DNA from: an uncultured delta proteobacterium
GTDB lineage: Bacteria; Desulfobacterota; Desulfobacteria; Desulfobacterales; B30-G6
Assembly (NCBI GenBank): GCA_963823335.1
Contig: CAWGLD010000005.1
Span: 224,001-288,000 of the forward strand
Length of the DNA stretch: 64,000 nt
Direction: 5' to 3'
Below the pieces are notes generated by a model, which saw nothing but the letters and a program-made list of their open reading frames with translations, was not told the DNA's origin and made no database searches. This document shows, piece after piece, positions 35,978 to 50,870 of this stretch; position 1 is the stretch's first letter, and every line of letters starts with the position of its first letter. Made by a program: the position numbers and the translations under genes.

Positions 35978-36089
35978 TAATATCGCGGGGCGATATTATC
36001 TGACGCACCTGCGGTGCTTTTTTTGGTTTATAGGTTCGAAAAAATAAAATAGCTTGACGAACCTTCCAATATTCATTATCAGCTTTATA

Positions 36090-36296
36090 AGGTTCAGGTG
36101 CGAATCGATTCAAAAATAACAATGATATTTTTGAATGCTTAACAGGGAACTCCGTTAAATTCGGAGACGGACCCGCCGCTGTAACCCCTCCCTGATCACA
36201 GGGAACCCTTTCAGCCTCTGCGAGCCACTGTTCTGCTATAATAAGGATGGGAAGGCCGCTGAAAGGGTGGGGGAGTCAGAAGACCTGCCTGAATCT
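36090..36296 (+). ncRNA. Cobalamin riboswitch
   Basis: AGGUG..AACAGGGAA.UCCG..AAUUCGG..CCCGCCGCUGUAA..GCCACUG..GGGAAGG..B12 box AGUCAGAAGACCUGCCU; upstream of btuB operon. Confidence 0.95.
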
Positions 36297-36355
36297 TGGA
36301 TGGCGTCCCCGTGGCCAGGGACCCATTGACAGATCAGTGGATAAAAAAGGGCAAT

Positions 36356-47472: not shown

Positions 47473-47994
47473 TTGGAATATGAGCTTAGAAGTGGGGGCC
47501 CCGTGTCGGCAATTTTAGGAAACCGGTATGCCAAACTGGTGATGATCGCCGGAACTGTCTGCATCGTGGATCAGCTTGTGAAGGCCCTGATTGTATCCAT
47601 GGTTCCTGTATACCAGACGATTTCGGTCATTCCTGGATTTTTTAACCTGACACACATATATAATCCCGGAGGGGCATTTGGCTTCTTGTCCGGCAGTCCA
47701 TCGGAGCTGCGACATCTTTTTTTTGTGGTCGCATCGGTGGTGGCTATGGGTCTGATCATCTTTCTCTATGCCAAGACACCGTCCGGCCAGGGCTTGCTGG
47801 AATTCGGGCTGTCTTTGATCCTGGGTGGGGCTGTCGGTAATATTATAGACAGAATTCGTCTTGGAAAGGTGATCGACTTTCTCGATGTTTATGTCAAAGG
47901 TATTCACTGGCCTGCATTTAATGTCGCCGACAGTGCCATCACCATAGGTATCGGCTTATTTATTTATCATCTGCTCTTCAAAGAACTCAATTGA
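47473..47994 (+). CDS. lspA: Lipoprotein signal peptidase II
   Basis: DQLVK, NPGGAFG, GNIIDR, VIDF, FNVAD. Confidence 0.96.
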   Translation: MEYELRSGGPVSAILGNRYAKLVMIAGTVCIVDQLVKALIVSMVPVYQTISVIPGFFNLTHIYNPGGAFGFLSGSPSELRHLFFVVASVVAMGLIIFLYAKTPSGQGLLEFGLSLILGGAVGNIIDRIRLGKVIDFLDVYVKGIHWPAFNVADSAITIGIGLFIYHLLFKELN

Positions 47995-49274
47995 CGTCCA
48001 TCAAACACAACGAGATTCAGCAGTATTTAAAGCGCTTAAGCCAGGACAAAGGATCGGTTTTTTATCCGGTTTGCCTGTTGCACGGAGAGGAAGTGTTGAC
48101 CAAGGCCGCGCTTCAAAGCGTGTTGAACCTTCTCATGCCTGGGTCAGCCAGGCAATACAGTTACGAAACCTGGGAAGGCATACCTGAGAACGTCTTTGCT
48201 GCTGTGCAGTATTTGAACACCTATGCGCTGCTTAACAGCGGCAAGGTTGTGGCCCTGCTGAACAGTTCTCTTTTCTCTGCAACCCAAAAAGGAACACCCC
48301 CGTCTGACGACGCCCGTCAAGGACGGTCGACACCCGGTGATGCCGCTGAAATACTGATGACGGCCCTGTCGGAAAAATTTCCAGACAATCATTATTTAAT
48401 CATGACGGCAGAATCCGTTGATAAACGTCGACGGCTCTACAAGGTTGTGGAAAATGCCGGTCTGGTGGTTGACTGTTCCGTGCCACAGGGTGACCGTCAG
48501 GCGGACAGGGTCGCACAGGAGTCCGTTCTCAGAGAAAGCATGCAGAGCCTTCTTTCACAACACGATAAAATTCTGGAACCTTCAGCATTTGAAGCGCTCT
48601 GTGACATGACCGGGTTCGACATCCGAACATTTCAGAACAATCTCAACAAGCTTATCGATTATGTAGGTGACCGGAAAAATATCGCTCTGGAGGACATTTC
48701 GATTGCCCTGGAGCGGACCAAGCAGGACCCTATTTATGCATTCACGAATGCCTTGTCGGAAAAAGATGTTGGGAACGTGTTGTTTTATATGGATTCACTG
48801 CTTTCGAACGGATATCACGAACTGCAGCTTGTGGCGGCAGCGGTCAATCAGATCAGGCGTTTGCTGGTCATCAGAGACTTTGCGACAACAGTTGCCGGTG
48901 GTACCTGGCAGGCCGGTATGTCCTACAATACTTTCCGGGGCCATGTCATGCCCCTGATTCAAAAGCATGACACGGCTTTGAAGGAACAGCTCGCGGATTG
49001 GGACCGGTCTCTTGCGGGTGACGCGGAGACGGCCGGTGAGTCAAAAAAGCGAGTGACCGGGAGCGACCTTTTGATTGCTCCGAACCCGAACAATGCCTAT
49101 CCTGTTTACAAACTGATGCAAAATGCTGTGACATTCCATGTTGCAGAACTTCTTGACGCGCTGAAGACGCTCGGTCGAGCGGACCGGTATCTCAAATCTT
49201 CGGGGCAGCCACCCAGAGCGATTCTGGCCGATGCAGTATTGAATATATGTAGTGGGTTAAGATCGCATAGTTAA
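47991..49274 (+). CDS. holA: DNA polymerase III delta subunit
   Basis: LLHGEE, VDKRRRLYK, LNKLIDY, ADRYLKS. Confidence 0.8.
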   Translation: MTSIKHNEIQQYLKRLSQDKGSVFYPVCLLHGEEVLTKAALQSVLNLLMPGSARQYSYETWEGIPENVFAAVQYLNTYALLNSGKVVALLNSSLFSATQKGTPPSDDARQGRSTPGDAAEILMTALSEKFPDNHYLIMTAESVDKRRRLYKVVENAGLVVDCSVPQGDRQADRVAQESVLRESMQSLLSQHDKILEPSAFEALCDMTGFDIRTFQNNLNKLIDYVGDRKNIALEDISIALERTKQDPIYAFTNALSEKDVGNVLFYMDSLLSNGYHELQLVAAAVNQIRRLLVIRDFATTVAGGTWQAGMSYNTFRGHVMPLIQKHDTALKEQLADWDRSLAGDAETAGESKKRVTGSDLLIAPNPNNAYPVYKLMQNAVTFHVAELLDALKTLGRADRYLKSSGQPPRAILADAVLNICSGLRSHS

Positions 49275-49303
49275 ATAAAAACATGAGGGTTTGCGGGGCA
49301 ATA

Positions 49304-49415
49304 AATGACGCGCGTAGCGCTAATGACGCCTGAAAGGCAAATGTCATCCGCAGGATAAATTGCACCCGTAAGGGTAAATATCGTCCGAAGGACTAATGAC
49401 ACCCGAAGGGCAAAT
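49304..49415. repeat. Tandem array of six 18-19 nt mini-hairpin units
   Basis: AATGAC-like linker plus 4-bp stem and GNA loop; stems differ between units but stay paired. Confidence 0.85.
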
Positions 49416-49418
49416 AGT

Positions 49419-49631
49419 ATGCTAAAGTTTGTTAAACAACAGGAACAAAAATTGGCCATGCGGCTCCTGGCCTGGCACTATGAGAAAAACTCCATTGTGA
49501 TGCCGCCGCCTTCCGAATTGAGGCAACAGGCCGAGCGTCTTGTCAATGACGCCCATCGCATCGCGAGGGAGAGGGGACGCAATGTGATGTCGATTATCAA
49601 GGACCTGGTTGCGGATATCAAGAAAGGTTAG
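49419..49631 (+). CDS. Small helical hypothetical protein
   Basis: 70-aa ORF, amphipathic helical pattern, same strand as neighbours. Confidence 0.6.
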   Translation: MLKFVKQQEQKLAMRLLAWHYEKNSIVMPPPSELRQQAERLVNDAHRIARERGRNVMSIIKDLVADIKKG

Positions 49632-49655
49632 AAACCCGTAGCACACTGTTCATCA

Positions 49656-49707
49656 ATTGAAGAACCTCGCAGCAAGCTACGGGGAATGCGCTCGCTGTTG
49701 CGGTTCA
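49656..49707 (+). repeat. REP-like family B copy
   Basis: ATTGAAGAACCTCGCAGCAAGCTACGGGGAATGCGCTCGCTGTTGCGGTTCA. Confidence 0.8.
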
Positions 49708-49811
49708 TTATCGGTTGCAAAAAAGAAAACGAGTATGTTAAGAAAATAATTTAATAGCGATAAGCGATAAGCCGTTAGCAGCGTATTGCTTATACACAGG
49801 TTAATAAACAC

Positions 49812-50870
49812 ATGACAAACCAGGGAAATAAAAGAATCACCGTCGGTATCATAGGGGCGACCGGTTATGCGGGTGCGGAACTTGTGAGAATCCTTTCCGG
49901 TCATCCCCATGTGACCGTGACAGTGCTGACATCACGTCAGTACACCGGGATCCGGTTCGACCAGGTATACCCGGCAATGAAGGACCGCATGCCGCTGGTA
50001 TGTGAAACGCTTTCCATGGAGAGACTGGACAATGCCTGTGAAGTGATATTTATGGCACTCCCGCATCAGATACCCATGACCATTGCTCCCGAACTGATTG
50101 CAAAAGGGAAACGCGTCATCGATCTCTCAGCCGATTTTCGATTCAACGACCCCAGTCTATATGAATCCGTATATCAACGCCATACTGCAATAGAGCTGCT
50201 GGGTGATGCTGTTTACGGTCTGAGTGAAATATATCCGGAGGCTATTCAGGATGCCGTGTTGATCGGAAATCCAGGTTGTTATCCTACCAGCGCGCTTTTA
50301 CCGATTATTCCACTTTTGCGGAGTGGGTTGATCGACTTGACGTCGATTATCATCGACGCTAAATCAGGGGTTAGTGGTGCCGGGCGTTCCTTGTCTCTGG
50401 GTACTCACTTCTGCCAGGTAAACGATTCCTTCAAGGCTTACAAGGTAGCCGAACATCGTCACAATCCTGAAATCGACGCCATCTTGAGCCGCGAAGCCGC
50501 AGAATCTGTGAGCGTTCTTTTTGTACCCCACCTGGTGCCAATGACCCGGGGTATGCTGACGACCATGTACGCAGGCTTGCAAAATCAGGTGACAGGGGAT
50601 GATATTCGGGCTTGTCTGAATGCATTCTATGGCAAGCGCCCCTTTGTGCGTATCTGCCCGGAAGGAAGCCTGCCGGAAACCCTTCATGTCAAAGGAACCA
50701 ATTACTGTGATATCGGTTTCAAGCTGGATCAAAAACAGGGTCGGGTCATCCTGATATCCGCCATCGACAATCTGGTAAAAGGTTCTGCAGGGCAAGCTGT
50801 TCAAAACATGAACATCATGTGTGGTTTTGATGAAAGCGCTGGATTGATGCAGATGCCATACCCGGTCTGA
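49812..50870 (+). CDS. argC: N-acetyl-gamma-glutamyl-phosphate reductase
   Basis: GATGYAG, DLSADFR, NPGCYPT, SGVSGAG, DNLVKG. Confidence 0.97.
   Translation: MTNQGNKRITVGIIGATGYAGAELVRILSGHPHVTVTVLTSRQYTGIRFDQVYPAMKDRMPLVCETLSMERLDNACEVIFMALPHQIPMTIAPELIAKGKRVIDLSADFRFNDPSLYESVYQRHTAIELLGDAVYGLSEIYPEAIQDAVLIGNPGCYPTSALLPIIPLLRSGLIDLTSIIIDAKSGVSGAGRSLSLGTHFCQVNDSFKAYKVAEHRHNPEIDAILSREAAESVSVLFVPHLVPMTRGMLTTMYAGLQNQVTGDDIRACLNAFYGKRPFVRICPEGSLPETLHVKGTNYCDIGFKLDQKQGRVILISAIDNLVKGSAGQAVQNMNIMCGFDESAGLMQMPYPV

Follow-up and report, generated by a model that had tools for sequence, protein, structure and literature searches.

A covarying mini-hairpin array 5' of a small gene as one copy of a dispersed intergenic repeat of uncultured Desulfobacterales, probably derived from the arms of PF05635 cassettes

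The array between holA and a 70-aa ORF

The window, by which we mean the whole stretch of 64,000 nucleotides that was analysed, carries on its plus strand a tandem array of short palindromic units in the spacer between a holA-like gene and a small ORF, with argC and folD downstream of the latter. The array begins 30 nt 3' of the holA stop codon, on the same strand, and the features of the locus are the following.

47991-49274, plus strand: holA, DNA polymerase III delta subunit-like (PF21694, E = 6.3e-8)
49285-49297, plus strand: G-rich flank GAGGGTTTGCGGG; the same stretch lies 5' of the left arm (see below) in loci L032 and L038
49298-49303, plus strand: GCAATA, remnant of the conserved head CAACAATA, which precedes nearly all arrays
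49304-49321, plus strand: unit 1, AATGAC GCGC-GTA-GCGC T; identical in locus L031
49322-49339, plus strand: unit 2, AATGAC GCCT-GAA-AGGC A; identical in L031
49340-49357, plus strand: unit 3, AATGTC ATCC-GCA-GGAT A
49358-49376, plus strand: unit 4, AATTGC ACCC-GTAA-GGGT A; 19 nt
49377-49394, plus strand: unit 5, AATATC GTCC-GAA-GGAC T
49395-49412, plus strand: unit 6, AATGAC ACCC-GAA-GGGC A; one A-C mismatch
49413-49418, plus strand: partial seventh spacer AATAGT; the same tail (AAATAGTATG / ATTAGTATG) is found in relatives
49419-49631, plus strand: 70-aa ORF, a conserved small protein with no Pfam family; a neighbour of the repeat and not part of it

All six mini-hairpin units of the preliminary description are present as listed (49304-49412, plus strand), each consisting of an AAT-N-N-C spacer, a 4-bp stem, a GNA or GNNA loop and a one-base linker, together 18-19 nt. 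The array had been taken to end at 49415, a figure that includes the AAT of the partial seventh spacer, whereas unit 6 itself ends at 49412 and the ATG stands at 49419. The last hairpin had also been said to cover the likely ribosome-binding site of the ORF; the GAAGGG of unit 6 (49405-49410) does lie 8 nt 5' of the ATG, and it is plausible as the ribosome-binding site of the 70-aa ORF, although it is a candidate only.

Tandem Repeats Finder did not report the array, since its units are too unlike one another. As a whole, the 166-nt array region folds no better than its shuffles (z = -0.86 on the plus strand and -1.44 on the minus strand), and the structural signal is therefore local, residing in the 4-bp stems, with no global fold. 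A search of Rfam, as proposed in the preliminary description, gave no Rfam 15 match on the array at E values up to 10 over positions 48800-50000, and with gathering thresholds the sole match in the whole window was a cobalamin riboswitch lying away from the array. The promoter scan at the locus returned two promoter-like sites, against 1.1 expected, and the terminator scan no terminator-like site. Contigs from three metatranscriptome runs and one DNA run were compared with the locus, uncovered parts carrying no meaning in this comparison. The array bin was covered in all three metatranscriptome runs, by contigs only, which may represent DNA and in which some 50 genomic copies are indistinguishable; positions 49325 and 49436 are joined in one RNA-library contig and units are replaced in another, and these contigs do not bear on the transcription, strand or ends of the copy in the window.

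Of 61 genomes, 36 have the 70-aa ORF; 22 of the 46 other families of the order are represented among them, and the array pattern was not found in those families. The region 5' of the ORF was compared in 12 genomes, five of which carry an array there (the source genome G000, G003, G004, G005 and G007) and seven of which do not (G001, G006, G008, G009, G012, G014 and G015). Two more MAG contigs have an array at the orthologous locus, and the units at this locus differ between the array-bearing genomes. L031, apparently the G005 locus, agrees with the window in the first three units and differs in the later ones, units 4 and 5 being fused in L031 by an internal deletion.

Unit design and distribution of the repeat

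The source genome comprises 4.37 Mb in 11 contigs. A single-unit scan with required pairing was too noisy there (2117 matches versus 1696 in the shuffle) and was replaced by a spacer-only scan for AATNNC every 17-20 nt, in which pairing was not required and a mononucleotide-shuffled genome served as the control. This gave 72 chains of 3-8 spacers, against nine in the shuffle, all nine of three spacers; the shuffled genome held no chain of four or more, and an array such as that in the window is beyond what chance would give. Chains with at least two units having at least three of the four stem pairs were defined as clean arrays, by which 50 of the 72 were kept and 22 set aside.

The units collected by the spacer-only scan (164 of 18 nt and 36 of 19 nt) have a 7-nt A/T-rich spacer (A-A-A-T-N-W-C) and, 3' of it, a mini-palindrome of 11-12 nt with a C-GNA-G closure; the search itself had set unit positions 1-3 and 6. 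Pairing played no part in the collection of the 164 units of 18 nt, and their four stem pairs show Watson-Crick pairing in 135, 146, 149 and 149 units. The pair with 146 is 8-16; pair 9-15 is Watson-Crick in 149 units versus 72 expected with independent columns, distributed over C-G (67), G-C (53) and A-T (29), while for the control pair 6-18 the 12 paired units among the 164 equal the 12 expected. The observation in the preliminary description that pairing is kept while the stem sequence changes is thereby borne out well beyond the six units on which it was made, with three pair types at a middle pair that is Watson-Crick in 149 of 164. In the GCGC class of units (n=47), the commonest base at positions 4, 5, 12 and 18 is kept in only 59, 72, 40 and 59% of units (range 40-72%), and at the 3' stem positions in 95-100%, which indicates that the copies diverged freely at positions without a part in pairing. 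Only some dozen stem types are in use and the copies are kin, so that the number of independent compensatory events should be taken as about a dozen and not as 164. Stem mismatches were counted by eye as about 20 G-T versus 11 A-C, which is too few to tell the folding strand.

The C-GNA-G loop rule likewise holds for units collected genome-wide: among the 164 units, C occupies position 10 in 147, G occupies positions 11 and 14 in 134 and 141, and A occupies position 13 in 149. The commonest loops are GAA (79) and GCA (36), followed by GTA (14), AAA (9), ATA (4) and GGA (3), and the tetraloops are GNNA and are not confined to the RNA-type GNRA, the non-GNRA forms being in the majority (GATA in 8 of 16). 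Both the loop rule and the GNNA tetraloops without GNRA restriction are shared with the DNA mini-hairpins GCGNAGC / GCGNNAGC described in the review PMC13037366. The passages on loop stability in that review name only GNA triloops as forming very stable DNA mini-hairpins, and give a melting temperature of 39 C for the RNA counterpart versus 76.5 C for the DNA mini-hairpin. The mini-hairpins treated there are single-stranded DNA oligomers or belong to phage and plasmid origins, whereas in the present case there is the sequence rule alone, in an orientation that follows transcription (PMC13037366). The C-GNA-G rule and the mostly non-GNRA tetraloops would thus seem to fit DNA mini-hairpins better than RNA, and a fold formed by the non-template strand of the DNA as it is transcribed would agree with the loop rule as well as with the orientation. 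An ssDNA structural repeat, one of the alternatives in the preliminary description, is still conceivable.

Instead of a gene finder, a longest-ORF proxy that covers 87% of the genome was used to define genes, and by this proxy 49 of the 50 clean arrays are intergenic. The lone non-intergenic array lies inside a 104-aa opposite-strand ORF that is probably spurious. The neighbours of the arrays are ordinary metabolic operons, with 2-oxoglutarate dehydrogenase, cbb3 oxidase and many acyl-CoA/beta-oxidation genes, together with efflux components, lactate utilisation, SHMT, SMC and MreB; no mobile-element genes were seen among the array neighbours in this genome. The arrays mostly stop a few tens of nt 5' of the next start codon. 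Between co-directional genes, 30 arrays are in sense and 7 in antisense orientation (binomial p = 1.9e-4), a tally that takes in two odd chains and in which the copy in the window was mis-scored through the choice of a minus-strand ORF by the proxy, the true tally being 31:7. On the 2-Mb contig C1, where the GC skew changes sign near 1.0 Mb, one arm has 7 plus-strand and 8 minus-strand arrays and the other 2 and 5, which gives no replication-strand bias. Taken together, the sense bias and the absence of a replication-strand bias indicate that orientation follows transcription and not replication. Of 38 headed arrays, 28 open with a GCGC unit, and the commonest unit transitions are GCGC to GTCC (26) and GTCC to GCAC (16); judged from their sequences, the array copies descend from one composite.

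A two-unit pattern search was extended to 14 other genomes of the same family and to 46 other families of the order. The pattern occurs in 13 of the 14 genomes, which span three genera, with 0 (G001) to 161 (G007) matches per genome and 64 in the source genome, and the reversed pattern used as a control gave no match in any genome of the family. The single match among the 46 other families was a false positive in an unrelated AT-rich repeat. Viral contigs and plasmids gave no pattern match. The named relatives are MAGs of uncultured Desulfobacterales or of a 'delta proteobacterium'. The design recurs in the other genera of the family, where the elements are often symmetric and have complete inverted and direct arrays. 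Between close relatives, the number and identity of the units turn over.

Genome G001 belongs to the same genus as the source genome and is 95% complete, and it has no pattern match at all. At two array loci its spacers measure 53 and 29 nt, versus 315 and 226 nt of repeat in the source genome, so the same operons are run with short spacers and do not need the repeat. The insertion ends could not be placed at these two loci, where the flanks are too diverged for boundaries to be set, and a target-site duplication is not definable because no clean empty site was found.

Relation of the arrays to a PF05635 cassette

A common head, in which AGCTATC-type words are followed by CAACAATA, stands before nearly all arrays. 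About half of them have, further upstream, conserved inverted units of the form GTCATTT..ACTTCGT..GTCATTTATTG, here called the left arm, and 16 of 25 left-arm motifs are followed by the head within 35-73 nt. The rest of the spacers is filled, from the stop codon to the next start, by GGGTTGGAGGGT-type and GTTTTAGG-type word arrays in a fixed order. A clear match between the far flanks of the arrays was found in only 1 of 47; the arms lie nearer, beside the AGCTATC words.

The link to a gene-bearing element comes from the PF05635 family, which has 20 matches in the source genome, each with its own kind of word array, compared with 1 of 14 control genomes. One of these (G000:C1:744859-745249) is a frameshifted PF05635 gene with an inverted array on its left and a direct array on its right, both of units of the type found in the window. 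The left array is inverted and contains GTCATT and palindromes, and the right array is direct and reads CAAAAAACAATA, then AATAAC GCTCC-GAA-GGAGC, AAATTAC and so on, that is, with the unit design of the window and 5-bp stems. A search of the source genome with 4-bp-stem motifs, at a distance of 150-5000 nt from left arm to head, found no gene-bearing copies; the sole gene-bearing copy, with its 5-bp-stem units, was found via PF05635. An orthologous cassette with an open ORF lies between the same two host genes in G002, G004, G007, G009 and G015, the last of another family. All five cassette ORFs match PF05635 (76.9-96.2 bits, cut-off 33.8), and the solved structure nearest to them is 2GSC from Xanthomonas. 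For S23p of Xanthomonas, PMC4990558 describes the structure (Lin et al. 2006) as a pentamer of four-helix bundles.

The junctions of this cassette are those of the dispersed arrays. The cassette ORFs end ..NNK-stop inside AACAATAAATGAC, so that the right arm supplies the stop codon, as TGA or TAA, with its first spacer; the head that gene-less arrays carry is therefore to be read as the 3' end of the gene. On the left, the junction ACTTCGT-GTCATTTATTGT is common to gene-less and gene-bearing elements. The identity of the junctions rests on short stretches of 13 and about 20 nt. Both inner junctions are kept in the gene-less copies, where the gene is replaced by about 20 nt of AGCTATC-type words that are not clearly gene-derived. 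With RNAfold, the 746-nt cassette has 92 predicted pairs between left and right arm, and gene-less copies with a left arm are predicted to have the same arm-arm fold.

Among related PF05635 loci, right arms of the AATGAC type were found by script at 7 of 22, and by eye at one more in G009. In the seven AATGAC-armed loci the protein identity is at least 63%, or the locus is the pseudogene of the source genome, and the 13 loci with a protein identity of 59% or less carry other arm words; one partial locus was left out. That the AATGAC arms surround the closest PF05635 kin is not proof of co-evolution, since relatives have the gene and the arms in common. There is no parallel between the number of arrays and the presence of the gene: G015 has an intact PF05635 gene and no pattern match, G009, with its gene likewise intact, has 6 matches, G005 has 104 with a truncated gene, and G014 31 matches with no PF05635 gene found. 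At the conserved locus the cassette looks vertically inherited and not recently mobile; in G001 about 40 nt of the left arm persist at this place.

The copy in the window shares its arm units (AAT-N-W-C followed by the C-GNA-G palindrome) with the gene-bearing element, the head AACAATAAATGAC and the junction GTCATTTATTGT being shared by the family. It has no PF05635 ORF, the ORF next to it being without a Pfam family, and the array is therefore classed as a gene-less derivative and not as a cassette. It also has no long-stem complementary flanks and no left arm. In the alignment with relatives, about 105 columns are missing from the window, corresponding to the left arm, the GTTTTAGG words and the AGC words, with a break point at a short GCAAT repeat. 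With the left arm and the loop missing, the copy in the window is a solo right arm.

Proposed origin and alternative readings

This transcription-oriented, pairing-constrained and family-specific repeat shares its units and junctions with the arms of the PF05635 cassette. We consider it probable that the array in the window is one copy, reduced to a solo right arm, of a lineage-specific dispersed intergenic repeat that derives from the arms of PF05635 hairpin cassettes. In the proposed parent cassette, an inverted left array and a direct right array enclose the small gene for the PF05635 four-helix-bundle protein; the gene-less copies, which have multiplied within one family of uncultured Desulfobacterales, would be internal-deletion derivatives of the cassette. 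The elements would be co-transcribed with the host operons, and complete copies may then form a long RNA hairpin that is cut by RNase III as in the case of rRNA intervening sequences, while a solo arm such as that in the window would form local mini-hairpins only. The latter copy probably has no locus-specific role other than to supply the 70-aa gene with its 5' leader and perhaps with a ribosome-binding site. The long arm-arm pairing gives no reason for units that are internally palindromic, and this counts against the proposal, as do the shortness of the shared junctions, the array numbers that do not go with gene presence, the seemingly vertical inheritance of the cassette and a loop rule that suits DNA better than RNA.

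The closest comparison is with the 23S rRNA intervening sequences of Coxiella, Leptospira, Xanthomonas and Brucella. As described in PMC4990558, intervening sequences with an S23p ORF have complementary bordering arms and are excised by RNase III, and the S23p ORF in Coxiella is under reductive evolution. In both cases a PF05635 four-helix-bundle gene lies in the loop of a long stem (predicted for our cassette), the element is in sense orientation within a host transcript (transcription being presumed here), and the gene decays while the arms persist. The present elements differ in lying between protein-coding genes (holA and the 70-aa ORF in the window) and not in helix 45 of 23S rRNA, in having arms of tandem 18-20-nt units each of which is a mini-hairpin, and in the number of gene-less derivatives, at tens or more per genome. 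The copy in the window, moreover, has neither gene nor left arm, and cutting by RNase III is suggested for the elements by analogy. In comparison with MITEs, inverted arms are present, the parent cassette is without a transposase, and there is no clean empty site to define a duplication.

The new points are an arm family whose word is a covarying mini-hairpin, a conserved head that corresponds, by its sequence, to the 3' end of a gene, and the spread of gene-less arrays through one bacterial family. No description of the 18-nt repeat was found in the literature, most subscription journals lying outside the scope of the search, and in the text of the survey PMC6749651 the strings 'Desulf' and 'hairpin' are both absent. 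A covarying tandem repeat of constant period is here tied to a gene-bearing parent of the rRNA-intervening-sequence type, and reports on tandem repeats of this kind in other bacteria have called them enigmatic. If the link to the cassette is true, it would provide an origin for constant-period repeats and a testable partner in the four-helix-bundle protein, and the array-rich operons compared with G001 (no match by pattern search) would offer a natural contrast for the effect of inserts in polycistronic messages.

It is tempting to speculate further that the PF05635 protein is the specificity factor of a hitherto undescribed type of mobile or copy-spreading element, and that it recognises the arm units and, with host enzymes, copies cassettes and gene-less arrays into transcribed spacers. 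The units would be recognised as RNA or as the non-template DNA strand, through the spacer and the C-GNA-G mini-hairpin, and the gene-less arrays would relate to the PF05635 protein as REPs relate to RAYTs. If true, this would explain the source of the rRNA intervening sequences and the clade-specific arm words, and we regard it as conceivable, though on balance unlikely.

The arrays might instead be a host-serving RNA module, strings of mini-hairpins with A-rich single strands being useful between the cistrons of a transcript. Candidate roles are protection of the downstream 5' end, blocking of Rho loading on long untranslated spacers, or the binding of a multi-site RNA-binding protein. The sense bias of 30 versus 7, the usual end of the arrays a few tens of nt before the next start, the strong constraint on the stems and on AAT..C and the lack of a terminator-like site at the locus in the window are in line with such a role, as is the array sequence in RNA-library contigs, where DNA carry-over is possible. 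However, the orientation bias could equally be due to loss of harmful antisense copies, GNA triloops are described as weak in RNA (PMC13037366), unit number and identity turn over among close relatives, and G001, with no pattern match, has 53-nt and 29-nt spacers in its operons. A host-serving module is in our view improbable.

REP/BIME and REPIN-RAYT systems belong to enterobacteria and pseudomonads, with REP palindromes of 20-40 nt. The present repeat resembles REP/BIME in its high-copy, GC-rich palindromes confined to the intergenic transcribed spacers of ordinary operons, in the mosaic combination with other short motifs and in presence or absence between close relatives, and it differs in a palindrome of only 11-12 nt, in units that are direct tandem copies with a fixed 18-nt period and not inverted pairs, and in a likely parent that carries a four-helix-bundle gene. 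A reading on these lines, in which a Y1 (HUH) transposase recognises and spreads mini-hairpins that form in single-stranded DNA, would be favoured by C-GNA-G being the rule for very stable DNA mini-hairpins (PMC13037366), by high-copy intergenic palindromes being typical of REPs, and by the presence of PF01797 genes, with 8 matches in the source genome. None of these 8 loci has a unit within 2.5 kb, however, and PF01797 occurs equally in G001, which is free of arrays, and in six other array-free families searched; there is also no replication-strand bias. With no Y1 (PF01797) transposase associated, we have rejected the RAYT link, and spreading of this kind is very unlikely.

Little more can be said for a protein-binding array in duplex DNA, in which a nucleoid or regulatory protein would bind the AAT-N-W-C motif recurring at 18-bp intervals. 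A constant period, a short invariant motif and a variable rest are seen also in the 20-21-nt and 52-nt repeats of Bacillus (PMC8161180), and Subirana and Messeguer consider that such constant-period repeats may function as transcribed RNA or as protein-binding DNA (PMC8161180). Our repeat is like theirs, as described in the same paper, in being non-coding and lineage-specific, with a strict period, a variable sequence and a short invariant motif, and unlike theirs in a period of 18-19 nt as compared with the published 20-21 and 52 nt (PMC8161180), in its internal palindrome with covariation and in its link to a gene cassette. Binding to the duplex leaves the compensatory stem changes, the strand-specific loop rule and the transcription-following orientation without a reason, and we hold it to be highly improbable.

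There is hardly any case left for the main reading of the preliminary description, a leader or sRNA dedicated to the 70-aa gene, as the array abuts the ATG, has its last unit overlapping the GAAGGG 8 nt 5' of it and stands at the same place in a sub-group of the genus, but is missing at 7 of 12 orthologous loci (present at 5), has no Rfam match, and was not found in the 22 of 46 other families that have the ORF, while about 50 further copies lie beside unrelated genes. The preliminary description had itself held that scattering over intergenic sites as a generic repeat would speak against its reading, and such a repeat is what we found, so that the locus-specific leader or sRNA is refuted; to read this striking and seemingly regulatory hairpin array as a leader of the neighbouring small gene would mislead, the array being a copy of a dispersed repeat with about 50 arrays in the genome and up to 161 matches in relatives.

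PF05635 cassettes and their arms

The number of PF05635 four-helix-bundle genes in the source genome (G000) is unusually high, with 20 matches, as against a match in one of the 14 control genomes. On its two sides each of these genes has a word of its own and the complement of that word, forming a cassette in which the gene stands between complementary arms built of tandem words. Examples among the 20 places in G000 are the following.

C2:127769, PF05635 gene
C6:205292, PF05635 gene
C5:488603, PF05635 gene
C4:116996, PF05635 gene

At the cassette locus with AATGAC-type arms, which has the same two host genes across relatives, the upstream aminotransferase-like gene extends into the left arm in the related genomes G002, G005 and G001 (loci L122, L124 and L154, respectively), and the last codons and the stop of this gene therefore come from the repeat.

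G-rich words and higher-order duplication

In the intergenic spacers of G000, many arrays have upstream of them, in the sense strand, G-rich words that contain four runs of GGG (AGGGTTCGAGGGTGATACAAGGGTTGGAGGGT) and begin at stop codons or just past them. These words resemble quadruplex-forming sequence, and a match to them is present in the same genome in the left arm of the PF05635 cassette at C7:178049. In the related genome G007, one pair of units recurs four times with a spacing of 53 nt (G007:C1:130921-131121), which is a higher-order tandem duplication of part of an array.

Other features of the window

Window 36079-36306, cobalamin riboswitch (85.7 bits)
Window 49419-49631, 70-aa ORF
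Window 49655-49707, motif of about 50 nt with CGCAGCAAGCTACGGGGAATGCGCTCGCT, between the 70-aa ORF and argC
Window 49756-49772, tandem words AGCGATA x 2.4, upstream of argC

The CGCAGCAAGCTACGGGGAATGCGCTCGCT motif looks like a further short repeat that is very widespread. Summed contig depth over it was 235-1080 in all four runs, the DNA run among them, and the contigs have numerous loose ends on both sides. The motif is found again 5' of the array at G000:C7:393762, and its reverse complement is contained in five near-identical PF05635 cassettes of a different word type.

The AGCGATA words are another word array, one that is changing fast; at the matching spot L031, apparently a locus of G005, has an extra run of AGCTTAC x 4.

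The 70-aa ORF encodes a conserved small protein without a Pfam family, found in 36 of 61 Desulfobacterales genomes, usually after holA.
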